A stretch of DNA of 64,000 bases, taken from the IMG/VR virus record IMGVR_UViG_3300031416_000004. The stretch is one strand, 5' to 3'. The position numbers and the translations under genes are program-made. Origin of the DNA: an uncultured virus (IMG/VR IMGVR_UViG_3300031416_000004) (Duplodnaviria > Heunggongvirae > Uroviricota > Caudoviricetes). Shown here one piece after another: positions 3,504 through 63,514 of this stretch (its first letter is position 1; each line of letters begins with the position of its first letter). The notes beneath the pieces were generated by a model. That model was not told the origin of the DNA. It saw nothing but the letters and a program-made list of their open reading frames with translations, and ran no database searches.

Positions 3504-4532
3504 CTACTCCACAAATGGTTGATTATCCGAGAACGTCTTCAAATAGAGTTGCAGCGGCTTCGAGATCGAGCGTTTCGTGTTCGAGCGTGGCTTCGATGAA
3601 CTCCCTCGTGGCTTCCGCGTCGACCGCGTTACCATAGGCGCGCAATCGTCCCACTCGGGAGGCAGCGCCATGAGCCAGCGGGAATGTGCCGGGTTCAACT
3701 GGCCGCCACCGTCCATCCCGGCAAAAGAGCCAATCAGCATCTCGCCAGAAGCCGTTAGTCGGGCCGGTTCCGACAAATTCTGCATCAACTGTTGCGGACC
3801 CATTTCGTCCTTGCGATCCCCGCCGCGAGACCTGAAGTTGTCCGTCGTGGGTGTCTGCCATCCCGCTAGTTGAGCCTGCTCGCAGTGATAAAGAGGCACT
3901 GTCGTTTGCCCCTGTTCTTCCAAGCGTTTTTTCGCCAGCTTTTCGATAATCTCCGGACTTCTCTCCCGTTCCGCAACAGTCGGGGTCGACCAGCCCGCCA
4001 ATTTCGGATTGCCCCTTACCGGATCGAAGTAGTCTATCGCTTCCGTTGTCATGGAAACCTGAGTTCCCTTCTTCCCATTCCATCTGTTCTGGTATCCAAG
4101 TCGAGCTTCGTGCGCCATCGGTGTTGACCATCCGCTGAGACTGACGGCATCCGCCAAATTCAGACCGAACCCCTTCGCCTTGCGCGCTTCCGGCGTCTCG
4201 CCCTTGCCATGGTTCGTGACGGTCGCTGTCGGCCAGCCGGCGAGCGAGCTTACTGTCACCGAGTCCGATGTCCGCGGCGTCGGATAGCCCGCCTGAGGAA
4301 GATCGAAGATCGTAGGCGTGGAATCGGAGCCGCTGGCGGATGTGCGGTGCGCCGACGCTCGCACTGCAGGTATCAACCGCCCCGAAGGCGTAGCCCGTTC
4401 CTTCCATGTCAGTTTGTACAATATCGAGCCAAGCAAGTCCGTCCTTGCTTGCAACCTGCTCGCCATAGATTTTTGCAGGGCGGCGCTCTCGGATGAGGTG
4501 GTGGGCGTGAGGCCATAAGTGCCGCTCGTCAT
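3504..4532 (-). CDS. Nested out-of-frame ORF, probable beta subunit of the C5 methyltransferase
   Basis: Long alternative frame, ATG 4532 preceded by AAGGAG; five G[WY]xT[PA] modules; motif IX-like [16 protein letters not shown]. Confidence 0.7.
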
Positions 4533-4830
4533 CCACCCCTGCTCCTTTGCCTGCCGCGCTGAAAGGTTGGCAGGGGCACGAGAGGGACCAAAGCGCAGTA
4601 TCATCCGAGACGCCAGCGCGACGGAAGGCGTAACTCCAAACTCCGATGCCAGCGAAAAGATGAACCTGTCGAAATCCTCGATAGTCATCTGGTCGCACAT
4701 CGACGATGCTACGTCGATCGACAATGCCGTTTGCAATAAGTCCAGCGGCAATGAGGTTTTCGAGCCAGTCGGCGGCGTATTCGTCAAATTCATTATAGAC
4801 CGCCCATGGCGTTGTGTGGATGTAAGTCAT
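3523..4830 (-). CDS. C5-cytosine DNA methyltransferase, large (alpha) subunit
   Basis: Motif I LFAGIG, IV PCQPFS, VI EQV, VIII HIRQR, X RAYGNAV; motif IX not seen in this frame. Confidence 0.88.
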
Positions 4831-4837
4831 GTGCGGA

Positions 4838-6958
4838 TTATCCACAAATAGTTGATTTTGTAAACGACGAAAGATAGAGATCGAGCGCTGTTTCTCGCTT
4901 TCCCCATCCCATGTTCCTGAGAATTTCGTAGGCTTCTTCGATGTAACGGTCATGATCCACGTCCGCAGGCACAACAAGATCATCCGGCAGCGTCATGATG
5001 GGCCGACAGCCATCTGACCTTGACACCTTGGCGCGGTTCCCTGTCTTGGCGTGCGGCTTGCCGCGCATGATCGGAGCACCGTCCTTCGCCCAATAGAAGC
5101 GCACGGTTTTACCGAGATATTGACCATTCCAGTCGCCACCGCCCTTGGCTTTGATGACACGAACGAAACCACGCACGTCAGGATAATTCCTGATGAAGTC
5201 TTCAATCGGAATCCCGTCGACAAGGAACGCCAGGATCGCGTCACCGCACACCGTCATGTTGGGATTCTTTTTCATCTGCTCGAACGACGGGCTATATTCC
5301 GGCGAGTCCTTCATCAGGAATTTACTCAAGCCTTCGTGTTCGATCCTCGCCAAGAGAGGGTCGTCTTCCTTCAGTTTGTTCCGCCAGTGGTTTGCAATGT
5401 ACCCCTTGCGCTTGGCCTTACCATCGGGCTTGATCGCCAGGTAGAAATTGACATCCCGATTATAGATCGCCTTGTATTCGGCACCTTCGAGGATGAAGCT
5501 TGTCGTGTTCTCCCACCACTCGATGAGTTCTTTGAGGAACCCGCCTGCCGGCCGGTCACCCTTCATGCCTTCATACAGGTGGCGCGGGATCTTCATCACG
5601 ACACCATCAGTGTTTGCCGACACGATCCGGATGCCGGCAAGTTCTGCGCGCTCGATCAGCATCAACAATGTTAGCTGACCGGTCAGCGTCGTAGCAATCA
5701 TCAGGTGTGGAGCAAACAGAACGCTGTAACGGCTCCCGAGCTTGCCATATGGACCGTTCAGACCAACCTTTCGGCCATCCGACCGAACCTTGAAGAATAG
5801 TTCTTTCTCGCGGTCGCCGGCATCACGAGCGTCGTTTGAACGCTTCTTGTCTGCCATGCGCTCGGCTTTAATGCCGCCGTAGACAGGCTGGAATTTTGGG
5901 CCGACCGCTTTCGGGTAAAGGCCAAGCTTTAGGATGATCGAAGGGTACTGAGAGCCCACGTCGAAGTCGACAAGCTGCCAATCGTCATCCGACGCTTCGA
6001 CACGACACTTTTCCTGCGAATGCAGTCCGCCGATGCCTAGCTTGTAGGTGGACTGGCCGATCTCAATCTTGAATTTCTTGAACTCGTCAGGGAACGGCAC
6101 GGAGCCGGTATCTGTGACCTCAATATCAGTCTCTCGAATGACCTTCAAAACGTTCTGTAGCAGCGGCGTTTTGAACTCTATGAAGTCGGGAACTTCGTAT
6201 CGGAACCGATAGCCGCCTTTGAATTCACTTTTCTGGATCTGCTTTTTGATCAGACGTTCCACGCCGATCTTGATCATGCGCTCGCCGGTCTGTGCATCCG
6301 ACAGCGACCGAGCATCAATGCCGTAAATCTCGCCAATCGACTCGCGAAGTTCGAGCGCCTGCGAGCAATGCGAATAGAGGGTCGCGGTCGCAGGGCAGTC
6401 CGAATTTCGGCAATAGTCGTTCAGTACGTCCATCTCGTCGTGGGTGAGATCGGCGTCAGGGTCTACGGGAAGGTCTTGGAGCCGCTTTGCGTGCAGGCGA
6501 CCGGCAAGCGTCTTGAGGCTCGCGCTGCCGGAGGCGAAAACGTTCTCCTGCTCGTCGTCATCATCGGCACCGGTTCCCACGGAGGGGTTGGTGTCGAAAA
6601 GATCGATGTGATCCACGTAGGACGGAACGACGATGCCGAACTCGCGCTCGCAGTCCCACGGTTTCTTCCGCTTTTTGATAATCCAGTCAGAGAGTGCTTT
6701 CAGGTCCGCGTTGCTCGCGCCATTGAGCGCGTACAACAGAACCATCATGTCGTAGTCTCTCGAATTGAAGCCGACTACGGTGTATTTCTTGAGAATGCGC
6801 CTCACGCGCAGCGGATCGAAATCAGCGCGATCACTGCGTTCATAGCCGATTGACCGGCCGTCCAGCGTCAGGAATGCCACGTAGAAATAATTCCGGTAGC
6901 ATTCCAAGTCGAAGAAGGCGACTGGACGTTCGGTCTTGGTCGTGACTTCTTTGGCCAT
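4838..6958 (-). CDS. Family B-type DNA polymerase with 3'-5' exonuclease
   Basis: ExoI FDLEC, FNSRDYD, motif A DFDVGSQYPS, motif B KVGLNGPYG, motif C NTDG. Confidence 0.88.
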   Translation of the reverse strand: MAKEVTTKTERPVAFFDLECYRNYFYVAFLTLDGRSIGYERSDRADFDPLRVRRILKKYTVVGFNSRDYDMMVLLYALNGASNADLKALSDWIIKKRKKPWDCEREFGIVVPSYVDHIDLFDTNPSVGTGADDDDEQENVFASGSASLKTLAGRLHAKRLQDLPVDPDADLTHDEMDVLNDYCRNSDCPATATLYSHCSQALELRESIGEIYGIDARSLSDAQTGERMIKIGVERLIKKQIQKSEFKGGYRFRYEVPDFIEFKTPLLQNVLKVIRETDIEVTDTGSVPFPDEFKKFKIEIGQSTYKLGIGGLHSQEKCRVEASDDDWQLVDFDVGSQYPSIILKLGLYPKAVGPKFQPVYGGIKAERMADKKRSNDARDAGDREKELFFKVRSDGRKVGLNGPYGKLGSRYSVLFAPHLMIATTLTGQLTLLMLIERAELAGIRIVSANTDGVVMKIPRHLYEGMKGDRPAGGFLKELIEWWENTTSFILEGAEYKAIYNRDVNFYLAIKPDGKAKRKGYIANHWRNKLKEDDPLLARIEHEGLSKFLMKDSPEYSPSFEQMKKNPNMTVCGDAILAFLVDGIPIEDFIRNYPDVRGFVRVIKAKGGGDWNGQYLGKTVRFYWAKDGAPIMRGKPHAKTGNRAKVSRSDGCRPIMTLPDDLVVPADVDHDRYIEEAYEILRNMGWGKRETALDLYLSSFTKSTICG

Positions 6959-7023
6959 CAAGCACTCTAACATCAACAAATTGTGGATTTACAGGGCGCA
7001 GTTAAGCGCCCTGTAAGGTGACA

Positions 7024-7707
7024 TCAGATGTCTTCATCATCGTCGATAGAGGGTGCCTTCTTATTGGCTGGCTTGCCGCCGAGATCATCATCGTCATCGT
7101 CGTCGCCGAGGTTTTCAATTTCGTCGTCGTCGATGCCGCCACCGGCAAATTCCTCACCCTTCTTGAAATACTGAAGGGCATCGAGAGTGGTGAAGATGCC
7201 GTTGCCGCCCTTATCCTTCGCCTTGATGGCGTAGAGGTGGAAATAGGCGATCGCATAGTAACCCGAGCGAAAAAGGTCTTCACCTTCGTCCTCGATGTCA
7301 ATGTCCTCGCCGCGGCGATTTTTGTATTTCGGCTTCCGGTCGTTGGTCAGGCGCAGATAGCGCATGCCCTCGTATCCATCACGAACATCACCGTCGTCGG
7401 TGACATACTTGTCGCCATCGAACAGCGGCCAGCGGCCTTTCGGACCGTCGCCCATTGCACTCTTGAGATTTGCGAGCTCCTTGCCAGGCCATTCCTTGGC
7501 GCACAGGTTACGAATTGCTTCGTTGATCACCTTTACGCTGGCCTTGCCGTCTTCCGTAGTTGGATCGATCAAGCCGTTGGTGCGATATTTCAGTTTTGCA
7601 CCCTCAGTGTTCGAAGAAGCTGTCTTCGCGAAGCCCTTAAAGTAGCTGAGACGCACCATGACTTTGATGGTGCCCTTTTCTGCGTTGAATGATGGTTTGA
7701 ATCCCAT
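7024..7707 (-). CDS. ssDNA-binding protein (DUF2815/gp2.5-like)
   Basis: VRLSY, DGD, SGYY, NGIFTTLDALQYFKKGE pattern; very acidic C-terminal tail; synteny. Confidence 0.8.
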   Translation of the reverse strand: MGFKPSFNAEKGTIKVMVRLSYFKGFAKTASSNTEGAKLKYRTNGLIDPTTEDGKASVKVINEAIRNLCAKEWPGKELANLKSAMGDGPKGRWPLFDGDKYVTDDGDVRDGYEGMRYLRLTNDRKPKYKNRRGEDIDIEDEGEDLFRSGYYAIAYFHLYAIKAKDKGGNGIFTTLDALQYFKKGEEFAGGGIDDDEIENLGDDDDDDDLGGKPANKKAPSIDDDEDI

Positions 7708-7752: not shown

Positions 7753-8997
7753 TCAGTCGTCGAAATCTCCAAAATCCTCGTCGAGGTTTTCGAAGTCTGT
7801 GGTGACCAGAAGCGCTGGCCGCGCATCCTCGATCGAGACGATCGAAGGAGTGGGTTCGCCGCCGACAACAAAATCCCTGGGGAACTTCCCCTTACCAACG
7901 ATTTTGTCCAGCATTGCGGGAGTTCTCAACTTTTTGATGATTATCTGGTCGTCTTTAAAGCCGTTCTTCTTCAACCAGGCTTCCGACTGTTCTTCATCCG
8001 CGTGCTTGCGGTTCGAACGCCGGCCGGCGACAATCTTTAGCCCGTATTTCTCACCGTCGCCGGTCCGCACGTCTGCAGCGACGGAAGCTTCCACGCGGGT
8101 GAGGAACTGACGGGCGAGAGACAAATGGTCATAAATGGCCTTTTTACGGGCTGTCGTGAGACCTTCCACGTCAGGAAAGGTGATCTCCACGCCGAAGTCC
8201 TCGTACTCGTCAAGATTTTCGAACTCGATACCGGAAAATTCTAGTGCCCACGCCTCATATTCAGGACAGGCACCTTCCACCTTCGCGGCAGGACACCAGG
8301 TGCAACCGTCCTTTGAGGGTATGCACGGAGCATTAGGATCAAACGTCAGCTTGGCCCGCTCACGGATCTCGGCAGCCTTCGCCCGCAGTTCCTTGATAGA
8401 GATGACCCACTCACCGCCGCCGCGTCCGTTTCTCGGTTGATCGATGATTATCCGGACGCGCTTGATATGAGGATGGGTATCTTTGATCTGCTCCCATAGC
8501 GCATCGAAGTAGATGATCTGCTGCGTGTTCCCGACAGCTTCAACCGGAATGCCTTTTCCGTATTTCAGATCGGACTGAACAGCCTCATCACCTTCGTCCG
8601 GACCGGGAATAACAGCGCAATCGAGTGTGCCCCTTTGGGGTTCACCGTGGTCGTTAAGACCGGTGATGTGCGTTATGTCGACACGGCTTTCGATGATCAT
8701 CTTGCCGGGAAACTCGCGGATGCGATCGATCCCTGGCTGCAGGGCATCTGCCATGTCCTCGTCGCAGATATAGAGAACCCCGTTCACCTGCACTTCAGTA
8801 CCGACAAAATCATGGGCATCCAAACCGACGCTCAGTGCCAGTTCTCGTATGAGATGAGCAGCGGTGCCTTCATCGGCAGCCGTGTTAATGCGCCCGTCAT
8901 CCCTGTCCAGACCGAGCTTCTTGCAACGGTTCAATGCACCGGGACAGGTGGTCCACCGTTTGCTGTCAGATGGAGAATTTCGGGCGTGTCCTGCCAA
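7753..8997 (-). CDS. DUF2800 / Cas4-like PD-(D/E)XK nuclease
   Basis: HARNSPS..RW..CP, EGTAAH, GTLD, DLKYG, C..CP...C; TTG start inferred after AAGGA. Confidence 0.85.
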   Translation of the reverse strand: MAGHARNSPSDSKRWTTCPGALNRCKKLGLDRDDGRINTAADEGTAAHLIRELALSVGLDAHDFVGTEVQVNGVLYICDEDMADALQPGIDRIREFPGKMIIESRVDITHITGLNDHGEPQRGTLDCAVIPGPDEGDEAVQSDLKYGKGIPVEAVGNTQQIIYFDALWEQIKDTHPHIKRVRIIIDQPRNGRGGGEWVISIKELRAKAAEIRERAKLTFDPNAPCIPSKDGCTWCPAAKVEGACPEYEAWALEFSGIEFENLDEYEDFGVEITFPDVEGLTTARKKAIYDHLSLARQFLTRVEASVAADVRTGDGEKYGLKIVAGRRSNRKHADEEQSEAWLKKNGFKDDQIIIKKLRTPAMLDKIVGKGKFPRDFVVGGEPTPSIVSIEDARPALLVTTDFENLDEDFGDFDD

Positions 8998-9276: not shown

Positions 9277-9804
9277 TCAGATTTCTTCGTCGTCAGAGCC
9301 GGCGTCGTCAGAACCAGGCACTGCGGTCAGGCGGCCCTTGCCGAAGCCAGTGTCCGTTTCCTTCTGCTTGGCAACCCAGTCAACGACACGCTGAAGGTCT
9401 TTCGCCGGAACGTCGGCCACCGTTGCGCCTTCCTTGCCGACGAGCTTCGCCAGAGCGCCCTTGATCTTGCTCTTACGTGCGGCGGTTTCCGGATCACCTT
9501 CAACGTTCGCGAATTCGCCGAGCCACGGTGCGACGATCTTCATCTTGACCGTTTCGGTGGTCAGCTTCGGCGCAGTGTCTTCTTCGCCGTCACCTTCGCC
9601 CTCGCCCGTGTCGGCGCCGGTCTCAGTTTTCGTATCTTCCTTCTTGGCGCGGGTGCGTTTCGGCTTTTCCTCGCCTTCGCCGGCCGACGCCGACTTGCCG
9701 CCCGCTGCCAGCACCGCATTCAGTTTTTCGGTATGGTCATTCTGCGCTTCGGTGAGCGCCACGACGGCGCTGGTGAGAGCTTCGATCTTCGCTTCGAGAG
9801 ACAT
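9277..9804 (-). CDS. Conserved phage replication-module protein
   Basis: MSLEAKIEALTSAV coiled N-terminus, low-complexity linker; usual position upstream of DUF2800. Confidence 0.75.
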   Translation of the reverse strand: MSLEAKIEALTSAVVALTEAQNDHTEKLNAVLAAGGKSASAGEGEEKPKRTRAKKEDTKTETGADTGEGEGDGEEDTAPKLTTETVKMKIVAPWLGEFANVEGDPETAARKSKIKGALAKLVGKEGATVADVPAKDLQRVVDWVAKQKETDTGFGKGRLTAVPGSDDAGSDDEEI

Positions 9805-10406: not shown

Positions 10407-12860
10407 ATGCTCCATGAAATTGAACCATTTGCGCGAGCAGGTTTTGCGATCCACTGGCTGCACCCGAAATCCAAGCGGCCGATCGGCAACGATTGGGCTT
10501 CGAAGCCGGTAAAGACGTTGGACCAACTGCGCAACAGCTACGAGGCCGGCGTATCCGGCAAAAATGTCGGCGTGCGACTTGGAAAGTGGTCGAAGATCGG
10601 TTCTGATTTCCTTCTCGTCATCGATGTCGACATCCGCAAGCCGGAACTGGCGAAAGAAGCCTTCGCAGAACTGAAGCACCTGTTTCCTGAATACGCAACG
10701 TATCCATCCGTGATCTCGGGCTCAGGCGGCGCGAGCCGGCATTTCTACATCCTGACATCTCGTGAGTTCCCGTCGAAACAGTTAGCTCACTCTGCGCACC
10801 AATCCCTTGTTTGGGATGAGAAGCAGCAGAAGGACGTGAAAAAGTGGGATTGGGAGATCGAGCTTTTCGGCACCGGCAAACAAGTTGCCATGCCGCCATC
10901 GATCCACCCGATCACCGGGAAACCGTATATTTGGGAGCGCCCGTTCGACCTGGACGATCTCGATCTCGGCTTGGGCCCGTTCGTCGAGTCGGACTACGTT
11001 GCCTCGCTGATCGATTACGACGAGGAACGCGAGAACGCACCGGTCAATCCTGATGCCATTGAACCGCTCGGCCTGACACCGGACCAGGTTCGCGAGATGC
11101 TGTCGAAGATCCCGAATGAGGATTTCGACTACGAGGAATGGCTGAACGTCATGGCCTCTGTCCAGCATGAGGCGCAGGGACATCCTCTCTCGATCCGCAA
11201 GCAATTCTACGAGGTATTTCGCGAGTGGTCTGCGCGATCCTCCAAGCACGACGATGAAACGACCAAAGCCAAATACAAGAGTTTCAAGAACAGTCCGAAT
11301 CGGAGACAGCGCACAATGCGCTCAATTCAGGCGCAGGTCCGCGAGATCGAGCTTGATGAGCAAATGGACGACCTTGGTGACGAGATTGATGATCTCGGGC
11401 CCGAGGAAGATGAGGAAGACGGTGAATTCGATGACGTGCTCGGCAGCGACCCCGACAAGCCGTCCAAACGAGAAATCAGATTGCGCAAGGCAGAGGTCGA
11501 GCACGCCTTCGGCATAGTCCCGAAGCGTATCCAGCGTCTGAATGAAAAGCACGCTGTCACGTTTTTGAGCGGCAAGTGCGTAATTATCACCGAAAATTCT
11601 GACGGGACAACATCTTACGGAACCCCCGGTGAGCTTCATAACTGGTACGAAAACGACCGTGTGGCCGGTGAGAAGTCCACTCAACCGGTGTCGAAAGCCT
11701 GGATGCAGCACAAGGGACGGCGGCAGTATCCGAACGGCGTTGTTTTTTCCCCTGGAAAGGAACGTGACGGCTACTTCAACCACTGGAAAGGGTTCGATGT
11801 GGAGCCTGATCCCAAGGGTTCCTGTAAAATGTGGCTGGATCACCTACGCGAGATCATCTGCTGCGGAAATGAAGAGCATTATCGGTACGCGCTCGGATGG
11901 TTTGCCCACATGGTTCAGAAGCCTTGGGAGAAACCTGGCGTTGCCATGGTCCTGCGCGGCAGAAAGCGCATTGGTAAGGACACGATCGCCGACTATTTCG
12001 GCGGTATCATCAAGCGATATCACGTCACGGTCGCCAATCAGGACCAGATGGTCGGCAAGTTCAACCAGCACCAAGAACGGTGCCTGATGCTCCATGTGCA
12101 GGAAGGTTTTTGGGCCGGCAACAAGCAGGCTGAAGGTTCCCTGAAGTACCTGATCACCTCGACATCGGTGATGATCGAACCGAAGACCGTGAATGCCTTT
12201 AAGGTGGACAGCTATCTTCGCCTTTTCATCTCGTCGAACGAAGATTGGGTCGTTCCTGCCACCGCAGATGAAGGGCGTTATTTCGTTCTGGATGTCTCCG
12301 ACAAGCGGAAGGACGATCACAAGTATTTCGGCGCGATGAAGCGCGAGATGATGAACGGTGGTCTGGAAGCTCTGCTCCATTACCTGCAGAACTACGATCT
12401 CAGCAAGTTCGAAGTGCGCAAGGTGCCGGATACCAATGCGCTGGCCGACCAGAAAATCCAGGGTTTGAAGAACCTCGACAAGTGGTGGTTCTCGATGCTC
12501 GAATCAGGTGAGCCAGAGTTCGAGTTTCAGAACATCAAGGGCATAGTTGCTGACTGGAACACTGAGGCCATCGTCGTGGATCGAGACGACTTCCGCAATG
12601 TCTACTCTGCATGGATGCGGCACCAGCGCTATGACGGCAGCGAGCTTGTGAAGTTCATGATCGGCAAACGGCTCCGCGAGCTTTGCCCGCAGATCGAAGA
12701 CAGGCGGCGCCGTGATGGTAGCAAGCAGATTTGGACATATGTCATTCCGAGTTTGCCGCAGTGCCGATTGGAGTTCAGCAAGTTTATGAATTCCGAGATC
12801 AAGTGGGAGAGCACTGACGCTCCTGAAATCGTTCTGGAAGAGGATTTCGACGATTTATAA
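10407..12860 (+). CDS. Prim-Pol primase fused to PriCT-2 and SF3/DUF5906 helicase
   Basis: IDVD, SGSGG.RHFY, PPSIHP; WL....S...F.EWS PriCT pattern; GRKRIGKD, ISSN helicase motifs. Confidence 0.9.
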   Translation: MLHEIEPFARAGFAIHWLHPKSKRPIGNDWASKPVKTLDQLRNSYEAGVSGKNVGVRLGKWSKIGSDFLLVIDVDIRKPELAKEAFAELKHLFPEYATYPSVISGSGGASRHFYILTSREFPSKQLAHSAHQSLVWDEKQQKDVKKWDWEIELFGTGKQVAMPPSIHPITGKPYIWERPFDLDDLDLGLGPFVESDYVASLIDYDEERENAPVNPDAIEPLGLTPDQVREMLSKIPNEDFDYEEWLNVMASVQHEAQGHPLSIRKQFYEVFREWSARSSKHDDETTKAKYKSFKNSPNRRQRTMRSIQAQVREIELDEQMDDLGDEIDDLGPEEDEEDGEFDDVLGSDPDKPSKREIRLRKAEVEHAFGIVPKRIQRLNEKHAVTFLSGKCVIITENSDGTTSYGTPGELHNWYENDRVAGEKSTQPVSKAWMQHKGRRQYPNGVVFSPGKERDGYFNHWKGFDVEPDPKGSCKMWLDHLREIICCGNEEHYRYALGWFAHMVQKPWEKPGVAMVLRGRKRIGKDTIADYFGGIIKRYHVTVANQDQMVGKFNQHQERCLMLHVQEGFWAGNKQAEGSLKYLITSTSVMIEPKTVNAFKVDSYLRLFISSNEDWVVPATADEGRYFVLDVSDKRKDDHKYFGAMKREMMNGGLEALLHYLQNYDLSKFEVRKVPDTNALADQKIQGLKNLDKWWFSMLESGEPEFEFQNIKGIVADWNTEAIVVDRDDFRNVYSAWMRHQRYDGSELVKFMIGKRLRELCPQIEDRRRRDGSKQIWTYVIPSLPQCRLEFSKFMNSEIKWESTDAPEIVLEEDFDDL

Positions 12861-16838: not shown

Positions 16839-17120
16839 TTAGCCAAGAACATCAGCAAAACGATCGGTGTGCCCTGCAGGGTGGTAGACCCACTTCTGAA
16901 CCCCATCAACCCTCTCCCGAATTCCGGATTTGACCCACCCACAATAGGAGATCAAAATGATGGACATTCTCACTGATACGCGCCGATCATAGTCCCGCAA
17001 GCTCTTACCAAGTGCCGCGCACCAGACCTGCTCCACATAAACGGATTCTCTGCCAGCGAGCCATACCCTTATCTTCTCAATTTGCGCAGCAAGTTCGCTT
17101 GTCATTGTCAATTGCTTCAT
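16839..17120 (-). CDS. Small winged-helix-like protein resembling VapE-type helicase C-termini
   Basis: EQVWCAALG...IIL...GW...R...QKWVY; GGAG RBS; ends FADVLG. Confidence 0.55.
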   Translation of the reverse strand: MKQLTMTSELAAQIEKIRVWLAGRESVYVEQVWCAALGKSLRDYDRRVSVRMSIILISYCGWVKSGIRERVDGVQKWVYHPAGHTDRFADVLG

Positions 17121-17207
17121 GGCGCTCTCCTGTTCAATGTGAGACAGCATAATCGTCATCACCTAACATGACAACCGTTTGTTGATCTTTGGTTTCGATT
17201 GAAAATT

Positions 17208-17668: not shown

Positions 17669-17928
17669 GTAGCGCCTTGATATTACAAGCAATAACGCGA
17701 TGATAACGCAATGCGGCAAGCCCACGCTAACGCACTGTGAAGCTAACGCACTGTGAACCTCATACGTTACGATAATTAGGGTTGCGCACGCACAGTGCAA
17801 AAACGTAACGCATGGACAATTACGGTTGCGCACGCTCGTACCACCACATAGCGTTGCTATATCCACATATGGTTGACTATCTAACGCAATGCGATTATGA
17901 GAATGGATATAAACAACGGATTAGGTGC

Positions 17929-18489
17929 ATGGGTCGCAAGCCGGGAAACAGAGCTAAAGCAATAGCCAAGGGCTTGCCCACATACACGGGTGGCGCATGC
18001 CGTGAGTGCGGTCACCACATGAGACGGACGGCAGATAAGCACTGCATGCATTGCCTTGAATTGGACGACGGACGCACCAACACGCAAGCCGCTAGAACGT
18101 GGCCTCACTACAAGGCACGGCGTGCCGCCTATGAGCGTATTCGTCGAGCTATGCGGAAAGTCCGTAATGCGCCCTTGTCGATCTATCTGAGATCGTTCCA
18201 GGCCATAGAGATCAATCAACCACGAAAGGACAAAACCATGGTTGCAGCATGCCTACACAAGGCCACGGCTAAGAAGGCTGGCCGCAAGACCTATGAAGCG
18301 CCATACGCCTGCAGTGAGTGCGACACAATGCGCAGATACACGCACAGCGGCAATTGCGTTGAATGCGCCCGTCGAGCGGCAAGCGAGTATCGCAAGACTC
18401 CTGCAGCGCAAGAGGCAAACCGTGAACGGCAAGCCCGTTTCAGGGCGCGTCAACTGGCAAAGAAAATCGGCCTCCTGGATGACATTTAA
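17929..18489 (+). CDS. Double zinc-ribbon protein
   Basis: Two A.K.G..TY...C..C....R.T....C..C repeats. Confidence 0.7.
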   Translation: MGRKPGNRAKAIAKGLPTYTGGACRECGHHMRRTADKHCMHCLELDDGRTNTQAARTWPHYKARRAAYERIRRAMRKVRNAPLSIYLRSFQAIEINQPRKDKTMVAACLHKATAKKAGRKTYEAPYACSECDTMRRYTHSGNCVECARRAASEYRKTPAAQEANRERQARFRARQLAKKIGLLDDI

Positions 18490-19392: not shown

Positions 19393-19420
19393 TAATCAAC
19401 CTTTTGTGGAGTCTATCGTC

Positions 19421-21587: not shown

Positions 21588-21818
21588 ATGGCCTTGCCAT
21601 GGTCGGATATGAAAATTGCCTTTCCTTGCAGCAATTCGGAACGCCTTTGGCGCGCCGTAGAAAATGGGAAATGCGCCTTTCCGTCGAATTGGGAATTGGT
21701 TGAAACCGATTGTTCGGGCGCCCGTTGCGTTGCGATATTCCGAGTCCGCTTGACAGGTGAATCGCTTGTTATCCAAGGCCGGGAAGTTGCGGCACAAATT
21801 AGACGTTGGGGGCGATAA
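21588..21818 (+). CDS. Hypothetical protein
   Basis: GGGAG RBS; TAATG-coupled to next gene. Confidence 0.55.
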   Translation: MALPWSDMKIAFPCSNSERLWRAVENGKCAFPSNWELVETDCSGARCVAIFRVRLTGESLVIQGREVAAQIRRWGR

Positions 21819-27113: not shown

Positions 27114-27206
27114 GCATGAGCGAGCGAGAGTCAAGAGGTGTCGAACCATCTTGACAATATCAACAAAAAGTTGATTATCTGGTTAACGCAAAAACAGGAA
27201 CAGAAG

Positions 27207-29505: not shown

Positions 29506-29538
29506 CTAGCAAATCAACCATTTGTGGATACCCTGATC

Positions 29539-36607: not shown

Positions 36608-36608
36608 G

Positions 36609-55892: not shown

Positions 55893-56432
55893 TTAACCGA
55901 AAGGATCGTTGTTGTCCTCAACGATTTTCAGCCGCAAGGTGAGCCAGAAATACGCCTTCGTGGACACGGCTTCTTCCGGAGGGCGCACTACCCCGGCACC
56001 GATCTTGAACTGCTCGACGTTGTTCTTACGCAGGTTCCCCATGTCATCGAAATTGACACCGAAGGGGTCGGGCTGCCGCATGTTCGGACCGGTGCCCTTG
56101 CGTTTGATTTCCTGCGCCAACCGCTTCTTTACGTCGGCCATGGCGACGTGTGCTGGATCTGTGGGGTTCTCGCGATCATCAGGAACGAAGCCCTGCACGA
56201 TGATATCCCACCAGCCGTCTTCCGCGGTCGAAGCCAGTGGCGACGGTCGCATCTCATTTGGTAACGGAGGCTCAATAATGCTGATCATGGGAATCGGATC
56301 GTTGACGCCGAAGACAAGCCGACCGCGGAACACGTTTCCTGTCAGGTTCACGTTATAACCACCGGCCTCGTTGATCTGAGAAAGTGCTGCCGCGATAGCT
56401 TTCTGAACTCGCAACCGGAAAGGATCGGTCAT
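55893..56432 (-). CDS. Tail completion/terminator protein
   Basis: VFRGR..FG..DP.P..SI.E, NPTDPAH; synteny. Confidence 0.75.
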   Translation of the reverse strand: MTDPFRLRVQKAIAAALSQINEAGGYNVNLTGNVFRGRLVFGVNDPIPMISIIEPPLPNEMRPSPLASTAEDGWWDIIVQGFVPDDRENPTDPAHVAMADVKKRLAQEIKRKGTGPNMRQPDPFGVNFDDMGNLRKNNVEQFKIGAGVVRPPEEAVSTKAYFWLTLRLKIVEDNNDPFG

Positions 56433-57058
56433 TTCATCACCAATTGTTTGTTACGCCACAAATCAACTTCTTGTTTAGAATACTCTAAAGAGTTGAATTT
56501 GCATCCCTTCAAACGGTTTTCTTCCTTCGGCAGATATTGAAGGTTGGATAGGATATGAAGGCCGCAGACATTCTTGCCGCGTAACGGTGCTACGTGATCA
56601 ACTTCATACCCCTCAGGGCAATCTTCATAGAACCACTGGATGCCCTTGAGGTCTGCCCAGGGCGGGGTTCGCTGGATCTTCGCCGTTTGGCGTCTACGCA
56701 CCTCAGCATTTTTTCGTTCCGGGTGACGTTGACGCTTCAACCTGCCGTGCTTGCGCTCAAGCGCACGAATGGGTTCCGGGTTTCTCAACCTGCGCTGTCG
56801 CTGCTGACGAGCACCTTTTTCAAGATAAGCTGCACGTTCTTCATCGGTCATCGCAGCACGCTTTTCCGCAATTTTTCTCCGACTATATTCCCGTAAGTAG
56901 GTGTCTCGCTGAACTTGACGGCACTCAATGCAACTGCAATCCGCTGTATTGCGTTCAGACATATGACCGTGCTTGCAAGGGCGACCTGTAAAATAGGTTT
57001 TTTCACCCCGTTTTTTAGCAATTTCGCGCTCAGGGTACGCTTTCTGAATTGTTCTCAT
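56429..57058 (-). CDS. HNH homing endonuclease
   Basis: EVDHVAPL.G..VCGLH..SNLQ.L...EN; N-terminal Zn ribbon; lower GC. Confidence 0.88.
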   Translation of the reverse strand: MRTIQKAYPEREIAKKRGEKTYFTGRPCKHGHMSERNTADCSCIECRQVQRDTYLREYSRRKIAEKRAAMTDEERAAYLEKGARQQRQRRLRNPEPIRALERKHGRLKRQRHPERKNAEVRRRQTAKIQRTPPWADLKGIQWFYEDCPEGYEVDHVAPLRGKNVCGLHILSNLQYLPKEENRLKGCKFNSLEYSKQEVDLWRNKQLVMK

Positions 57059-57953: not shown

Positions 57954-58351
57954 GGAATCTCCGGTGCAACATACGTTGCCGGCACCGGCAAAGTAGCCAG
58001 TATCGGATCATCGGCATCCAACTGCAGAACCATGGCGGTGATCGTCAGATCGTCAGGAGGCTGGATGTTGTCGAGATAGTAAGCTTCACCCGCTTCGACC
58101 GAGATGATCGCATTACGCATAGGCTGCGGGATTTCTTCGCGCCAGATGATAATGCGAGGGGTGATGTCTTCACGTTCTGCGTAATTGAAATTGGTGCCCT
58201 TCATATCTCCAAGGGCTTGGAACTTGGTGTGCACGCGCACAAAGCACTGCACTGGCACCGCGTCGATCGATGCAAGATATAATGCAGGGACGCGCAAATG
58301 GAGTTGCACGTCCCTGCGGGCTCTCCGCTTAATGTCGCGGAAAGATGCCAT
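57950..58351 (-). CDS. Head-tail joining protein
   Basis: KRRARRDV.....VPA.Y, VRVH; synteny. Confidence 0.7.
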   Translation of the reverse strand: MASFRDIKRRARRDVQLHLRVPALYLASIDAVPVQCFVRVHTKFQALGDMKGTNFNYAEREDITPRIIIWREEIPQPMRNAIISVEAGEAYYLDNIQPPDDLTITAMVLQLDADDPILATLPVPATYVAPEIP

Positions 58352-58683
58352 CAGATTTCTTCGTCCTTGGAAGCAGCCTTTGCGGCGCCTTTCGGTTTTC
58401 CCTGGGGGTCACCTTCCGCGCCGGAAGCAGGTTTCGCTTCTTCAGCACCAAGCTGCTTTTCGACGTTGGTTGGTGCATCAGCTTCACCGGACTGAGATTT
58501 CGCGAGAATGACTTCGTCCTTCGTGGCCTTGCGGACGGCGTGGGCCGCTTCAAGCCTGTCAAATTCTTCCTGCTCCATCTCGACAACGCTGACACGCTGC
58601 GACGTAGATGCCGGGACGTATACCTTTTTGCCGTCTTCGCGACGGACGATCGTGTTAATGGCGTAAGCCTGTACCTTCGACAT
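58351..58683 (-). CDS. Head-associated hypothetical protein
   Basis: Follows capsid gene; AAGGA RBS. Confidence 0.7.
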   Translation of the reverse strand: MSKVQAYAINTIVRREDGKKVYVPASTSQRVSVVEMEQEEFDRLEAAHAVRKATKDEVILAKSQSGEADAPTNVEKQLGAEEAKPASGAEGDPQGKPKGAAKAASKDEEI

Positions 58684-58764: not shown

Positions 58765-59859
58765 TTACGCGAGGACGCGGGCTTTCAACGTGCGGTTCGG
58801 ATAGAGAACGAACGGCAGCGGCGAGGATTGATGCATCACATAGACTTCGCCTGGGTCTTTCTCCGTCCACATCTTCGGGAAGACATCAACGGAAACAGCA
58901 TCCGCCATCATGGCGTCAGCATCCCAAATCGCGCCGTAGGCGATGACACCCTGATTGCCGGGGGCCAGCATCAGAATGTCACGAGGATCGAGAATATCGA
59001 CCATATCCCCGTTCGGAGCTTCCACCACGTCCTTGTAAGTCCAGATTTCCAAGGACTGCCCAATGCCGCCGAGCGTCATGACGTATGTCAGCGGCTCATC
59101 GATGTTGAGCATGCCACGCTGGATCGTGGTGCCCTCACCGCCGCGGATCTGCGTGCTGAGCAGTTCCTTGATTGCGGTATTGTTCTGGAAGCACGGAACC
59201 ACGTCGGCGCCGACGATGACACGGTTTGGCCGGCCGCCGAATTTCGCCTTATACACCAAGTTCGACCAAGTGGTCAGATCGCCGATGATGTCGGCTGAAG
59301 GGTCGTCCCAATGGTCGGTGGAAAGCGTGATCGTGTGGCCGGGGTCACGGCCAAAGTCAACAGTCACTTCCGGATGGGCCTGACCCTGATCGGCCGCATA
59401 TGTGATGGTGTATTTGCCATCAATTACGGCTCGTGCACAGAGCCATGCGATGGTCATGTCGATGGCACGCAAGTGGAACTGAATAACCTCCTGAACACGC
59501 TGATCGAAGCGCTCCTGAACGGTCGGCAGGCCGCCGTTGCGGAAAATCTGACTCGGCAGAACGTTCGCCGCTTCCTGCGGACGAACCGCATCCTTCGGCT
59601 TGATGTAAGGCGGCGTGACCGACTTGACGGTTTCGCCGCGGCGCTTGAAGATCGGCTTGCCCTGGCTAGAAGGCATTACGAACGGCGCCATCACCCGGTA
59701 CGGAGTCGGAAGCTCAGAGATCAGGATCTCCTGCGTCTTGGACAGGTGCGGCGTGCTGCTGAAAAAGTTCTGGCGGAACCAGTCAGGGGTTGGGAGAAGA
59801 CGGAGATCCTGCCGCTCCATATAGAGGTCGGCAGATGTCCAGTATTCGAACTTATCCAT
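58765..59859 (-). CDS. Major capsid protein (lambda gpE-like)
   Basis: MAPFV.P...G, PPYIKPK, VDFGR, MHQSSPLP. Confidence 0.92.
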   Translation of the reverse strand: MDKFEYWTSADLYMERQDLRLLPTPDWFRQNFFSSTPHLSKTQEILISELPTPYRVMAPFVMPSSQGKPIFKRRGETVKSVTPPYIKPKDAVRPQEAANVLPSQIFRNGGLPTVQERFDQRVQEVIQFHLRAIDMTIAWLCARAVIDGKYTITYAADQGQAHPEVTVDFGRDPGHTITLSTDHWDDPSADIIGDLTTWSNLVYKAKFGGRPNRVIVGADVVPCFQNNTAIKELLSTQIRGGEGTTIQRGMLNIDEPLTYVMTLGGIGQSLEIWTYKDVVEAPNGDMVDILDPRDILMLAPGNQGVIAYGAIWDADAMMADAVSVDVFPKMWTEKDPGEVYVMHQSSPLPFVLYPNRTLKARVLA

Positions 59860-59889
59860 TGCTTAGTTTCCTTGTTTCTGGATCTGCGT

Positions 59890-60324
59890 TTAGGGCAGGA
59901 TCGGAGTGAACGATGCCAGCTTGCGCATGATGATTTGCGTCGGCGACGGAGCACCTTCGAACGCGTTCATCTTCAAAGCGTCGGTGTTGTAGGCGGCGTT
60001 CCAGACCAACAGGTCAGGATTAAAGCAGCCGGAGCGATAGACGCGGCCAACCTTGTAGTTGGTCGAAGCGTCGGTCGTGATCGGGTAGGCGAGAATGCCG
60101 ATGGCCTTGATCGTGCCTGTTGCGGCAACGATACGGCCGTTTGCGTCAAGGCCGACGACCGTCAGAGCGGCCAGTGTCTGGCTCGCAGCAACGGGATGGT
60201 CCATGACGAACTGCTCTGGCTGGCTTCCCGTGATGAGACCTTCGGGAGTTACCCCGAAGTCCTGGGACCACTGCTGCGGCACGCCAACGGTCTCGGCGTA
60301 GTTCGGAGGTGTAATGGTAGGCAT
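59890..60324 (-). CDS. Head decoration protein (lambda gpD-like)
   Basis: AIGIL...VYRSGCFNPDLLVW; between protease and capsid. Confidence 0.85.
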   Translation of the reverse strand: MPTITPPNYAETVGVPQQWSQDFGVTPEGLITGSQPEQFVMDHPVAASQTLAALTVVGLDANGRIVAATGTIKAIGILAYPITTDASTNYKVGRVYRSGCFNPDLLVWNAAYNTDALKMNAFEGAPSPTQIIMRKLASFTPILP

Positions 60325-60387
60325 TTTGTTGACCTTTCACCAAATGGTTGATTTTCCGAGACGGCGGCGGACCGCCTTCGAGTTAAC

Positions 60388-61716
60388 TTACGCGGCGGGT
60401 TTCTGCAGGCCGGCTGCGGCACGGACCCGCTGACGACGAAGCTGAGACTCGCTCATTTCGTTGTTGTCACCTTCACCGGGAGCACCAACGTCGGCGTTCT
60501 TGGTGCCATTCATGGCGTCCTGAAAGTTCCTGCCGGTGGCATTGGTCTTTGTGTTAGCCGCAGCGGCCTTTTCTTCCGGCATGTCCGCTAGCATCTCCGT
60601 GACCGTTTCGGCATCGAGCGATGCGAACTTGTCACCGGTCGCCATCTTGAGTGCCATGGAGGGCCGCTTCTTGCCTTCCTCGGAATTGACAATTGCCGAG
60701 ATGCGGGTGCGTTCGGCGGTAGCGCCCTCGATCTTGCCGGCCTTCACACCTTCAGCGTGGCCTTCGGCGCGAGCGGTATCGACAGCAGCCTGATCGACTG
60801 CCGCGTCATTTTTCGTCTGTCCAGACATGGTTTCGTCTCCTTCATCTGAGGACAGTTCTGCCGCAAATGCGGCGACGGAGTCGTCAAGCGTACCGATCGC
60901 ATCGGCCAGCCCGTTCGACGTTGCTTGCGAAGCCGTGAATGTGAGAGCTTCGGTGTCCCGAACAGCTTTTTCATCCATGCCTCTATTCCGTGCCACGGTG
61001 GACACGAAAACTGCGCCAAGCTCGTCGATGCGAGCCTGGATGCGTTCTTTGACTTCTGGTTTCAGCGCCTCGTAGGGATTGCCATCAACCTTGTGGGCGC
61101 CGAAGTGAATGAAGGTGACCTTGTATCCGCGCTGCTCCATTGCGGCCGAGATATCGATGTGCGCTGTGACCACGCCGATCGAGCCGACGCCGCCAGTGCG
61201 CGACACCGTGATGGAATCTGCAACAGACGCGATCGAATATGCTGCGGAATAGGCGCTTTCCATCGCATAGGCGCGGACAGGTTTGGTTCCACGAGCCGCG
61301 AACATCTTGTCGACGAGATCGAAATTGCCGGCTACCTCGCCACCGGGGGAGTCGATGATGAGCGCGATACCACGGACGCTTCCGTCTTCCAGTCCGCGTT
61401 CGAAGGCTTTCTGGATGTAGGCGTAACCGGTTGCCCACGATCCGAAGGCATAGGGGAAGTCGTGCAGGAGAACACCCTTAACCGGAATCATCAATACGCC
61501 GTCCTTGACGACATACGGGCGCAACATCGAACGGAACGAACCAGGTTCGCCCCACCAGTTTTCGTCGACAGACGCCATCTCAGCCTTATATTCCGGCGAG
61601 TTCATCTGTGCGGCAACCATGTGCAGCGAAGCTTCGAAGATGCCTTGCATTTCCGGCGCAACGATCGAGGGCTTCTGGTCGAAACGGGCGAGAAGCGGGT
61701 TCATGTTATTCGGCAT
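60388..61716 (-). CDS. S49 prohead protease with scaffold C-terminus
   Basis: IDSPGG, AYSAAY.IAS, GSIGV. Confidence 0.92.
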   Translation of the reverse strand: MPNNMNPLLARFDQKPSIVAPEMQGIFEASLHMVAAQMNSPEYKAEMASVDENWWGEPGSFRSMLRPYVVKDGVLMIPVKGVLLHDFPYAFGSWATGYAYIQKAFERGLEDGSVRGIALIIDSPGGEVAGNFDLVDKMFAARGTKPVRAYAMESAYSAAYSIASVADSITVSRTGGVGSIGVVTAHIDISAAMEQRGYKVTFIHFGAHKVDGNPYEALKPEVKERIQARIDELGAVFVSTVARNRGMDEKAVRDTEALTFTASQATSNGLADAIGTLDDSVAAFAAELSSDEGDETMSGQTKNDAAVDQAAVDTARAEGHAEGVKAGKIEGATAERTRISAIVNSEEGKKRPSMALKMATGDKFASLDAETVTEMLADMPEEKAAAANTKTNATGRNFQDAMNGTKNADVGAPGEGDNNEMSESQLRRQRVRAAAGLQKPAA

Positions 61717-63514
61717 CGAGGCCTCGCTTGTCTGGATTTGGATGGCGGGCATCCATGAAGTTGTTCGCGAGGGTTCCGTTCTCGCTACCGAGGATGTCTG
61801 AGAAATCGTGCTTTGCGGCTTCGCTGACGTTCTTTTCACCGGAAGCGGCGTTCACGGTATTGTCCTGAACATCATCGATGTAAGTGAGATCGTAGTGCTC
61901 GAACTCCTTCTTCTCGCGTGCGACCTGACGCAGTTCACGGCGCCAGTCGCTACCGTGGATGCGTGCAAGTTCACGTTCGTAGGTCGAGAGCTTGTGCTTG
62001 ATGAGAAGAACCGAAGACTGAGTTTCTTTGAGGGGGTCAATCTGGCCGCGTGCCGCACCGATCCACTCGCAAGCGGTAATTGCTTCCATAGCGAGCGGCG
62101 CGTAAAGCCATGCGCTGTCGGAACCCATGCGCTTCGGCAGGGACTTGATAACGCCTTTGTTGATCGCTTCTTCGAGCCACAGGCGATAGACGATGTTGGC
62201 GAACCGATCGGCGACAACCTTTTTGCGGCCGACCATGAACTTCCATGTCTCGGTCATCGCGGCGCGGGCGGAGGAATAATTCGTCTCGGTGTAATCCTTG
62301 GAAAGCTGTTCGTAAGATACGCCGAGCAGCGCCGCGATATTGCGCAGAATGGATTGCTCGAACTCCATACCAAGCGGTGCACCCTGACCGGGAGTCTGCA
62401 TCTTGAGTTTCGAGCCGAGCGGCAGTGCCGGAATGCGGACGCCGTTGAGCTTCAACTGATCAGCGCCGGCCATGAAGTCCGACATGACTTCAAGGTGTTG
62501 GCCGAGACCCTGCTTGATTGCCGTGTCAGCATCCGTGTCAGACGCCATCAGGCGAGCGAAGATATCCTGCGCGGGCAGATCGGATTCAACGACGGCGGCG
62601 TATGTAGCCTGGACCACGGCGTTCTGAAGCGCCACGTCGCGGAACTGGCGAGCCATGTGCGTTTCGCGAATGCCGGCAGCCATGTCAGACATGCCACGGG
62701 TCTGGTTCGGACGCATCTGCTCGAACAGGTGAATAAACTGAGGACGACCCCACCAGAGTTTCGCCGGCAGGCGCTCCCACTGATAGGCTTGTGTCAGATA
62801 GACATCGCGAGGATTGGCCTTGCGGATGTGATAGTGGGTCGGAACGTGATCCTGATTGACCTCGACGCCGCCGATGATGAAGGCGTTCGCTAGCCTGTCC
62901 ATCGGAGTGGAGAGACGGTCTACATCGATCATTCGAATCGATGTGCTGAACGGGCGATCGGACTTCGCAGACCGGTCCCAATCGACAGCGGCAAGCACTT
63001 CACCGCACATCAGGTAGGTGCCAACGGCCTGGCGAACCAGCATTGTGAAGGAGTTACGGCGGGTGGAGTCGATGTAATTCGCATCGGACTCGGCCCACAG
63101 GCCGAACTTTTCTTCGACTTCTTCCTGAAACTCGTCTTCCCATGTCTCGTCGAGCTTGCCCATCAGCACTTGGCTGTTCGGCTTGGCGTTCAGAAGGAAC
63201 TGGCTGCCAACGATGTTGTCCTGGTGAAGGCGCTGGCCGTTCTGCGCGTAGGCGTCGTTCTGCAGGATGTTGCGAATACGGGCGTCGGAAAGGCGCTTCG
63301 CCGGCATGATGTCCTGATCGGCCGTGCGGTTTCCCGGCTGCCAGAGCGCCAGTTCACGTGAAAACCGGCTCGCGCCTTCGTAGGCTTCGCCTGCAATGGC
63401 CGTTTCTTTACCCGCGCCTGACGCCACCCTGATAACGTCAGGCGCGGGAGTGCTCGAAACACCTTGGGAGGAGTCGGGACCGAGCACATCTGTGAAATCT
63501 TTGGGAGATGCCAT
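61706..63514 (-). CDS. Portal protein, lambda family
   Basis: RP.QTRG, GVSYEQLS.DY...NYSSAR, IDPLKE. Confidence 0.93.
   Translation of the reverse strand: MASPKDFTDVLGPDSSQGVSSTPAPDVIRVASGAGKETAIAGEAYEGASRFSRELALWQPGNRTADQDIMPAKRLSDARIRNILQNDAYAQNGQRLHQDNIVGSQFLLNAKPNSQVLMGKLDETWEDEFQEEVEEKFGLWAESDANYIDSTRRNSFTMLVRQAVGTYLMCGEVLAAVDWDRSAKSDRPFSTSIRMIDVDRLSTPMDRLANAFIIGGVEVNQDHVPTHYHIRKANPRDVYLTQAYQWERLPAKLWWGRPQFIHLFEQMRPNQTRGMSDMAAGIRETHMARQFRDVALQNAVVQATYAAVVESDLPAQDIFARLMASDTDADTAIKQGLGQHLEVMSDFMAGADQLKLNGVRIPALPLGSKLKMQTPGQGAPLGMEFEQSILRNIAALLGVSYEQLSKDYTETNYSSARAAMTETWKFMVGRKKVVADRFANIVYRLWLEEAINKGVIKSLPKRMGSDSAWLYAPLAMEAITACEWIGAARGQIDPLKETQSSVLLIKHKLSTYERELARIHGSDWRRELRQVAREKKEFEHYDLTYIDDVQDNTVNAASGEKNVSEAAKHDFSDILGSENGTLANNFMDARHPNPDKRGLDAE

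Follow-up and report, generated by a model that had tools for sequence, protein, structure and literature searches.

A stretch of 64,000 nucleotides from an uncultured virus (IMG/VR record IMGVR_UViG_3300031416_000004; hereafter the window) covers most of the genome of a temperate siphophage of the Casjensviridae (Chi-like) with a rhizobial host. Several of its proteins share a six-residue peptide, F-x-D-[VI]-L-G, which is the subject of this analysis and is called the tag below. The head genes form a lambda-type module with gpW (PF02831), a portal protein (PF05136), an S49 protease, decoration protein D (PF02924) and capsid protein E (PF03864). The replication module is Chi/T7-like and encodes an SNF2 helicase, a VRR-NUC protein, a DNA polymerase, a protein that binds single-stranded DNA (SSB), of the Enc34/T7 type (PF10991), a DUF2800 nuclease and a prim-pol/DUF5906 helicase (the primase). 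The accessory genes are typical of alphaproteobacterial phages and encode GcrA-like and GapR-like proteins, an MT-A70 methyltransferase, a C5 DNA methyltransferase, ThyA, a dCMP deaminase, RtcB and a HerA-like ATPase. Among named phages, Rhizobium phage RHph_X2_30 (X2_30; host Sinorhizobium americanum) comes nearest, with a portal identity of 69.5%. Closer proviruses are present in IMG/VR; the portal of the window is 98% identical to that of provirus G002 and 68% identical to that of G003. A megablast search of the primase region against phages gave no match. The curated protein set of the window contains 91 proteins, of which 90 were scanned with Pfam; the tape measure protein was scanned only in PHROGs.

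A six-frame scan of the window finds exactly 10 matches to F.D[VI]LG in eight proteins, all in the frame of plausible genes (Table 1). Five copies stand directly before the stop codon, one (in MT-A70) stands before a G-stop, and four are internal. The expected number is 0.075 in 200 codon shuffles of the window (maximum 1) and 0.042 in 500 residue shuffles of the curated proteins (maximum 2), which corresponds to an excess of about 100-fold or more. Similarly, six C-termini of the form [VIL]LG(G)-stop are observed and 0.107 are expected (maximum 3 of 3000). The codons vary (TTT/TTC, GAT/GAC, GTT/GTG/GTA, ATC/ATT, GGA/GGC/GGT), with synonymous change at all five defined positions of the six. 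The carriers include members of the families PF00145 and phrog_363 (C5 methyltransferase), PF05063 (MT-A70), prim-pol/DUF5906 and PF05136 (lambda-family portal). In an all-against-all blastp comparison, the tag is the only similarity among the eight carriers; the sole pair with E<0.01 consists of the tails of the 16839 and 37561 proteins. These results bear out the original prediction, which a model had made from the sequence alone, of ten copies on eight unrelated proteins, five of them exactly C-terminal, with synonymous codon variation; the count also exceeds the shuffled expectation, the comparison that it had named as a check. Its sites are also correct, except that the numbers 35208, 35411, 37561 and 16839, by which it designated four of them, are starts or ends of open reading frames (ORFs) and not motif positions.

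The C5 methyltransferase homologue of Rhodobacter phage RcMcDreamy is encoded by a single frame, aligns to residues 52-223 and 306-479, and ends in its own variant, ...LDGLIV-stop. The primase linker bears a tag at the same place (residues 327-342) in X2_30, G002, G003 and the further relative G006. The G002 homologue of the 107-residue protein (54% identity over 84 residues) ends in FEDVLGA-stop, and homologues of the 78-residue protein (53-91% identity) end in FADILG, FSDILG and FGDILG in X2_30, G002 and G003, respectively. The ATG of the next gene (35634) falls inside the tag codons of the 79-residue protein. The C-terminal copy of the portal is found only in the close clade (L016-L019, L021 and X2_30). 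The C5 methyltransferase gene also contains a second open frame of 429 residues (3504-4793, minus strand), which matches the DNA methyltransferase PHROGs phrog_1008 and phrog_31772 and has G-W-[ST]-T-P repeats. Both frames match the RcMcDreamy homologue, itself a single ORF in the first frame; the 429-residue frame either represents a possible overprinted gene or merely reflects homology of the DNA.

AlphaFold2 models place the tag in flexible segments. The MT-A70 core is confident to about residue 200, and the blocks of its tail have predicted local distance difference test (pLDDT) values of 61, 41 and 47, with a four-residue helix (200-203) at the first tag. In the portal, residues 1-73 and 553-605 have pLDDT below 50, and helices 7-14 and 570-577 cover both tags. 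Each of the three modelled tags is thus predicted to form a short helix within a flexible segment; positions -5, -2 and -1 are hydrophobic, which would be the architecture of an amphipathic docking motif. The models are consistent with the earlier proposal that the tag resides on flexible ends, in that all three copies lie in low-confidence tails.

The three close relatives carry strict copies in similar number (X2_30, 11; G002, 11; G003, 10), located at both portal ends, in the primase linker, twice in the methyltransferase tail and at the ends of small proteins. The small terminase (TerS), whose gene lies beyond the window, bears a strict copy at its N-terminus in G002 and G003 and the variant FDDIFG in X2_30. 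The tag is retained by small-protein orthologues that have diverged to 53-59% identity. In X2_30, an ORF that is open for about 88 codons ends in FDDVLG-stop at 1507-1524, between the annotated genes 1044-1271 and 1601-1948, and is probably an unannotated gene.

The exact pattern of the window is missing from the more distant family members examined, in which each phage has its own flavour of the peptide on a similar set of proteins. In the Bradyrhizobium-type provirus G005, twelve proteins or leaders end in ...[DE]LLG, including the integrase, an AlpA-like protein, the N-terminal segments of TerS and the portal, a methyltransferase (twice), the primase, the nuclease and the SSB. The flavour of Ruegeria phage DSS3-P1 is DDLLG-stop, and that of RcMcDreamy is DL[ST]DL[LF] internally and ...LLV-stop at ends. 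Among the proteins of Salmonella phage Chi that end in ...DDEV-stop are the primase, the nuclease, the SSB, TerS, a NinC-like protein and the post-capsid protein, whose gene follows that of the capsid protein. The MT-A70 family gives the broadest sample: among 120 homologues that are 55-95% identical, the core ends in ...WGNExxKF and is followed by a variable tail, which in 91 of the 120 finishes with Phi-x-x-Phi-Phi (Phi, hydrophobic residue) no more than two residues from the stop. The consensus of this tail is [DEP]-F-[EDA]-[DAE]-L-[LF]-G after a variable spacer, and nine of the homologues have the strict F-x-D-[VI]-L-G. As judged from these sequences, the tag appears to be the rhizobial-clade flavour of a tag system that extends across the Chi-like (Casjensviridae) phages. 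The original prediction of a phage-wide motif conserved at the peptide level is supported, and homologues in related phages carry the motif; it is not an isolated novelty of one phage but one lineage's flavour of a family habit.

The most widespread copy of the family tag is on the portal leader. An [LIV][LIF]G core that follows acidic or hydrophobic residues is present within the first 25 residues of 19 of the 33 aligned portal relatives, and a variant of this core in a further three; in approximately five of the 33, the N-terminus is cut by our start-codon rule. In the window, PF05136 begins at portal residue 55, and the tag at residues 10-15 precedes the domain. lambda gpB, a member of the same family, starts with MKTPTIPTLLGPDG, and the lambda record annotates the first 22 residues as a leader that is absent from the mature portal. 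The segment ahead of the portal domain contains a similar Phi-L-G-P core at the same position in both phages, IPTLLGP inside the annotated leader of lambda and FTDVLGP in the window, and the portal tag corresponds to the removed leader of gpB in family, position and core. The two phages differ in that, of the 21 lambda proteins whose ends were checked, no other one has such a motif. The portal leader also follows the flavour of each phage (FTDVLG in the window, DLSDLLG in RcMcDreamy, EIDALLG in G005), which argues that the leader and the remaining tags make up one system. The function of the gpB leader is described as unknown in PMC3224144.

A second class of C-termini is acidic. Seven proteins in the window end in [DE][DE][ILV]-stop, compared with 0.34 expected (maximum 4 of 3000): the SSB, the primase, the 175-residue acidic protein, the post-capsid protein and three small proteins. 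The endings LLDDI, LLEDI and FDDL, which had been noted earlier as weaker variants, are thus real and enriched, and are joined by DDDEDI, SDDEEI, SKDEEI and SLDDI. As in T7, the DDDEDI/SDDEEI/FDDL class (7 proteins) combines an acidic run with a hydrophobic residue at the extreme C-terminus. The window SSB has this acidic-Ile end and no F-x-D-[VI]-L-G, and the primase combines a linker tag with a terminal FDDL-stop. The SSB ends in DDLLG-stop in G005 and DSS3-P1 and in WEDEV-stop in Chi. The positional counterpart of the post-capsid protein ends in EDLLG-stop (DSS3-P1), DNLLG-stop (G005) or AEDEV-stop (Chi), and mass spectrometry shows that its counterpart in AchV4, a betaproteobacterial phage, is part of the virion.

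Table 1. Positions of tags, acidic C-termini, portal-region genes and DNA-motif examples in the window.
Feature	Position	Strand	Remarks
FEDVLG-stop, C-terminus of C5 DNA methyltransferase (gene 3523-4983)	3526-3543	-	PF00145, phrog_363
Prim-pol/helicase inter-domain linker: MDDLG, IDDLG, then FDDVLG	11364-11444	+	FDDVLG at 11427-11444, residues 341-346 of 817
FADVLG-stop on 107-aa protein (16839-17162)	16842-16859	-	
FSDVLG-stop on 68-aa protein (35208-35414)	35394-35411	+	kept in G002
FDDVLG-stop on 79-aa protein (35411-35650)	35630-35647	+	kept in G002
FDDILG in MT-A70 tail	36527-36544	+	residues 201-206; 20 residues before end
FEDVLGG-stop, end of MT-A70 tail	36584-36601	+	after spacer containing KSTNSG
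FSDILG-stop on 78-aa protein (37561-37797)	37777-37794	+	
FTDVLG, portal N-terminal leader	63479-63496	-	residues 10-15 of 605
FSDILG, portal C-terminal tail	61787-61804	-	residues 574-579; 26 residues before end
DDDEDI-stop on Enc34/T7-type SSB (7024-7707)	7027-7044	-	
FGDFDD-stop on DUF2800 nuclease (7753-8934)	7756-7773	-	
SDDEEI-stop on 175-aa acidic protein (9277-9804)	9280-9297	-	
EDFDDL-stop, prim-pol/helicase C-terminus	12840-12857	+	
GLLDDI-stop on 17812-18489 protein	18469-18486	+	
ESLDDI-stop on 60-aa protein (23068-23250)	23230-23247	+	
DLLEDI-stop on 94-aa protein (35634-35918)	35898-35915	+	
SKDEEI-stop on 110-aa protein encoded after major capsid gene (58351-58683)	58354-58371	-	
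Lambda-family portal (605 aa)	61706-63523	-	PF05136
S49 protease	60388-61716	-	adjoins portal gene
DNA motif, example	3508-3523	-	
DNA motif, example	6972-6987	+	
DNA motif, example	19395-19410	+	
DNA motif, example	29513-29528	+	
DNA motif, example	36562-36577	+	

The host genomes do not share this system as far as the C-terminal pattern reveals it. In four host genomes of 4.7-8.8 Mb, the pattern GANGANNTNYTNGGNTRR ([DE][DE]-Phi-[LF]-G-stop) has 6, 5, 11 and 3 matches, compared with 18, 14, 26 and 12 for the reversed control; the comparison with the host that the original prediction had proposed thus shows a pattern no commoner than its control. The matches cluster in two short regions that match prophages, with five of the 11 in G009 located within 25 kb on a prophage-matching contig, and outside prophage regions none of the four genomes is enriched in the pattern. 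The C-terminal tag has no occurrence in five unrelated phages of the same host groups (16-3, PBC5, RcapMu, RcapNL and 7-7-1), in which the broader F-x-[DE]-Phi-[LF]-G gives three matches against five for the control. A host protein to which host ligands bind in the same fashion is an improbable reader of the tag, and the suggestion of a host protease adaptor as hub is weakened by the lack of enrichment in these genomes and phages.

Further observations concern the DNA between the genes and the neighbours of the carriers. An intergenic DNA motif, ATCAAC-M-A-W-T-W-GTGGA, is a near-palindrome of ATCAAC-N5-GTTGAT and has 28 matches with at most two mismatches (0.18 expected). Most matches are on the coding strand and 8-30 nt upstream of a start codon, where GTGGA/GGGGA is the ribosome-binding site, and operon borders hold fully palindromic copies. 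The motif occurs 27 times in G002, 13 in X2_30 and 14 in G003 and is absent from DSS3-P1 and RcMcDreamy; where it overlaps gene ends, it translates as K-S-T-I-C-G or K-S-T-N-S-G. Two copies (3508-3523 and 4841-4856) flank the C5 methyltransferase gene (region 3508-4856, minus strand), which is located between the DNA polymerase and dCMP deaminase genes that are adjacent in X2_30. In G002, this slot is occupied by another ORF of 277 codons with the same tag at its end, and it looks like an exchangeable cassette site.

Two regulators, the GapR-like DNA-binding protein (34496-34783, plus strand; PF10073, E 2e-32) and the GcrA-like protein (27138-27824, plus strand), derive from the chromosome biology of alphaproteobacteria. 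Seven of eight relatives have the GapR-like gene, AchV4 being the one exception, and the C-terminus of its product, ...YMAALGME, resembles the tag. The HerA-like ATPase (21818-23062, plus strand) has an internal C-P-x-x-F-L-D-V-F-G that is conserved in X2_30, G002 and G003; it is a look-alike of the tag within a folded domain and not a tail copy. Three likely homing endonucleases are inserted between conserved genes. A GIY-YIG protein (36600-37268, plus strand) directly follows MT-A70, and an endonuclease VII/HNH-like protein (56429-57058, minus strand) lies among the head-tail genes; both are found in none of the eight relatives. The third (17812-18489, plus strand) is related to the 56429-57058 protein, has a Cys-rich repeat and is found in two of the eight. 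The head module is mosaic: the capsid and decoration proteins (58765-60324, minus strand) share only 48% and 44% identity with their G002 counterparts, compared with 91-98% for the products of the flanking genes (portal, protease and neck).

The excess, conservation and context of the tag suggest a docking function. We consider that F-x-D-[VI]-L-G may be a short linear motif that docks on a single socket, probably encoded by the phage, in the packaging machinery, a reading to which we give even chances. In the proposed mechanism, the tag would form a small amphipathic helix of acidic character, with Asp at -3, hydrophobic residues at -5, -2 and -1, and a Gly cap, that is displayed on disordered tails, leaders and linkers, and all carriers would plug it into one common socket, encoded by the phage rather than by the host. 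This socket would belong to the packaging machinery around the portal vertex, with the large terminase (TerL) as the first candidate and the S49 prohead protease/scaffold or the portal next, and the DNA methyltransferases, the primase and the small early proteins would be brought to the DNA that is being packaged. The terminase, although first among the candidates, is itself less likely than not to be the socket, and the protease/scaffold and the portal are each quite unlikely.

A single reader is suggested by the flavours, which are shared within a phage and differ between phages. The placement in the packaging and head machinery rests on the tags of TerS, the portal and the post-capsid protein, on the orthology of TerL and on the contacts of its lambda counterpart: TerL (9/9), the portal, the S49 protease, SNF2 and VRR-NUC are orthologous in all relatives, and lambda large terminase A binds Nu1, B and FI (Table 2 of PMC3224144). 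By analogy, the interchangeable tails of T4 gp43, gp55 and gp33 offer a precedent that would favour a packaging socket. Several other candidates fare worse. The capsid protein is an unlikely reader because it is only 48% identical between the window and G002 although their tags are shared (portal, 98%; protease, 93%). The DNA polymerase is weakened as a socket by DSS3-P1, which has a Chi-type polymerase unlike that of the window, and G005, since these two have non-matching polymerases and the same DDLLG. The HerA/DUF853 ATPase has no homologue in DSS3-P1 or AchV4, both of which bear tails, and the GapR-like protein is missing in AchV4 and cannot explain the portal leader of AchV4 or lambda. 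The docking or address role put forward in the original prediction is supported by the statistics, conservation, flavours and modelled tails, and its common hub is a putative one.

Several points weigh against a packaging socket or against a single one. Gene calls in the relatives come from our own crude caller. The host comparison covers [DE][DE]-Phi-[LF]-G-stop only, and a host pocket that host ligands use differently may be the reader. The lambda portal leader is removed before packaging, and a partner within the prohead would suit this better than the terminase. Because the C-termini of the SSB, the nuclease and the primase have another ending, of the acidic-Ile/Leu kind, there are possibly two sockets, and the T7 analogy would direct the tails of the SSB and the primase to the DNA polymerase. 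In the AlphaFold2 model of the portal monomer, the tags are not docked on the protein itself (pLDDT 38-39).

Other explanations were considered. In one of them, which we regard as unlikely, the tag descends from the cleavable leader of the portal and is an address for the packaging vertex: all carriers would gather on one terminase/portal/prohead-protease socket, and leader removal would license mature proheads. The methyltransferases, the primase and TerS, together with the integrase, SSB, nuclease and GapR-like protein of relatives, would be the carriers; phage DNA would be modified, cleared of proteins or handed over during packaging, and removal of the portal leader would free the socket. 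Quite unlikely is a mark for the S49 (lambda gpC-like) prohead protease/scaffold, in which the tag would be a cleavage exosite or a prohead ticket comparable to the T4 capsid-targeting sequence (CTS), for cargo or as a degron. The leader annotated as removed in lambda bears the most widespread copy, the S49 gene adjoins the portal gene, Nu3 is required for gpB incorporation in lambda (Table 2 of PMC3224144), and relatives carry a tag on the post-capsid protein, which in AchV4 belongs to the virion. However, a tagged TerS is not expected inside the prohead, and most copies are C-terminal, unlike CTS leaders; in the window, an N-terminal leader is found on the portal copy only. The virion list of AchV4, in which mass spectrometry finds structural-module proteins only, also opposes encapsidated cargo, although AchV4 is a poor test in that its non-structural proteins have no tag.

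A role as an unusual motif that binds the host beta sliding clamp, by which DNA enzymes and the terminase would be tethered to clamps left on replicating DNA, is very unlikely in our estimate. With methyltransferases, primase, nuclease, integrase and SSB among them, the carriers recall a clamp toolbelt; clamp motifs, too, are placed at extreme ends and in linkers, and D-Phi-Phi fits the last three places of the clamp consensus QL[SD]LF. Precedents are the T4 tails on gp45 (PMC2988020) and phage Mu MuC, which reportedly uses the host clamp. Nevertheless, the leading Gln of the consensus (QL[SD]LF/QLxLxL) is found in none of the ten copies, the DinB proteins of the hosts (Rhizobium and Bradyrhizobium) have canonical clamp motifs at their ends that do not resemble the tag (QLRLAL, QLLLML, QLTFGI and QLDFSL), and the unrelated phages of the same host groups have no tag. 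An intramolecular acidic latch is just as doubtful. There, the peptide would be a DNA mimic on the DNA-binding surface of its own carrier, as in T7 gp2.5, and no common hub would exist. Nearly all carriers bind DNA, the SSB is of the Enc34/T7 type, the TerS tag lies beside an RGRP AT-hook-like stretch in X2_30, G002 and G003, and the acidic C-terminus in the Enc34 crystal occupies the groove of a neighbour and alters DNA specificity when removed (PMC5686142). In opposition to a latch, unrelated DNA-binding folds need not share a hydrophobic register and a Gly cap, and flavours that are common within a phage and different between phages point to one shared reader. Least credible, and in our view extremely improbable, is a DNA-level element of gene ends, whether for translational coupling, as the upstream part of the ATCAAC...GTGGA motif or as a recombination linker for cassette swapping. 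Six copies are at gene ends, one of them with the start codon of gene 35634 inside its codons, Leu is CTC in eight of the ten, and the C5 methyltransferase tag abuts the intergenic motif, with a different gene, the same tag and the same downstream DNA in the G002 slot; the tag plus junction may therefore help cassette swapping. Selection on the peptide is indicated instead by the synonymous variation at five of six positions and the low codon-shuffle expectation, the N-terminal and linker copies (portal, primase and TerS), and the pattern kept across the 120 MT-A70 homologues.

Docking peptides of this kind have parallels. The T4 gp43, gp55 and gp33 tails are interchangeable hydrophobic-acidic peptides on flexible linkers, and this set, read by one protein, links replication with late functions (PMC2988020); the tag is likewise a short hydrophobic-acidic peptide borne by unrelated proteins via flexible linkers. 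Differences are that no clamp family, and hence no phage sliding clamp, is found in the Pfam scans of 90 of the 91 window proteins, and that copies are also N-terminal and on the portal. In T7, the gp2.5 and gp4 tails dock on the DNA polymerase gp5, and the window resembles T7 in its SSB type (PMC5686142) and in the acidic, hydrophobic-capped tails of SSB, primase and nuclease. The tag itself differs, because it is carried by methyltransferases, the portal, small proteins and the TerS of relatives and not by the SSB, with half of the copies not C-terminal, and the alike DDLLG tails of phages with non-matching polymerases speak against a polymerase socket. Eukaryotic acidic LxxLL(G) motifs (E6AP ELTLQELLGEE and MAML1 WMSDLDDLLGS, with papillomavirus E6) are near-identical to DDLLG and are short helices of disordered regions (PMC5760104); organisms and readers are unrelated, and the likeness is one of chemistry only.

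The beta-clamp motif and the SSB tip DDDIPF are also short end peptides, through which a single hub is connected with many DNA enzymes. Gln is absent from the tag, which has Gly as its last residue, and the host DinB ends are canonical. The SSB tip requires a free C-terminal Phe, whereas four of the ten window copies are well inside their proteins. The analogy with SSB tails and clamp motifs drawn in the original prediction is an apt working model, and membership in either family is not supported.

Shared hydrophobic-acidic docking tails are already known in T4 and T7, and no description of the tag was found in the open-access papers and preprints searched. New elements are the Phi-x-D-Phi-L-G flavour with its helical form, the copies placed in linkers and at N-termini, and the near-universal occurrence on the tails of MT-A70 proteins, as well as the lack of the flavour in the host genomes and unrelated phages tested and the connection with the portal leader that lambda removes. 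Whereas shared docking peptides wire the replisomes of T4 and T7, here the principle takes in head assembly, integration and DNA modification as well as replication, and holds throughout a large phage family, which implies an undescribed hub that links these processes. The tag is short, portable and lineage-specific, which makes the hub directly findable. It also offers a testable role for the lambda portal leader and a sequence signature by which members of the same network can be spotted among uncharacterised small phage proteins.

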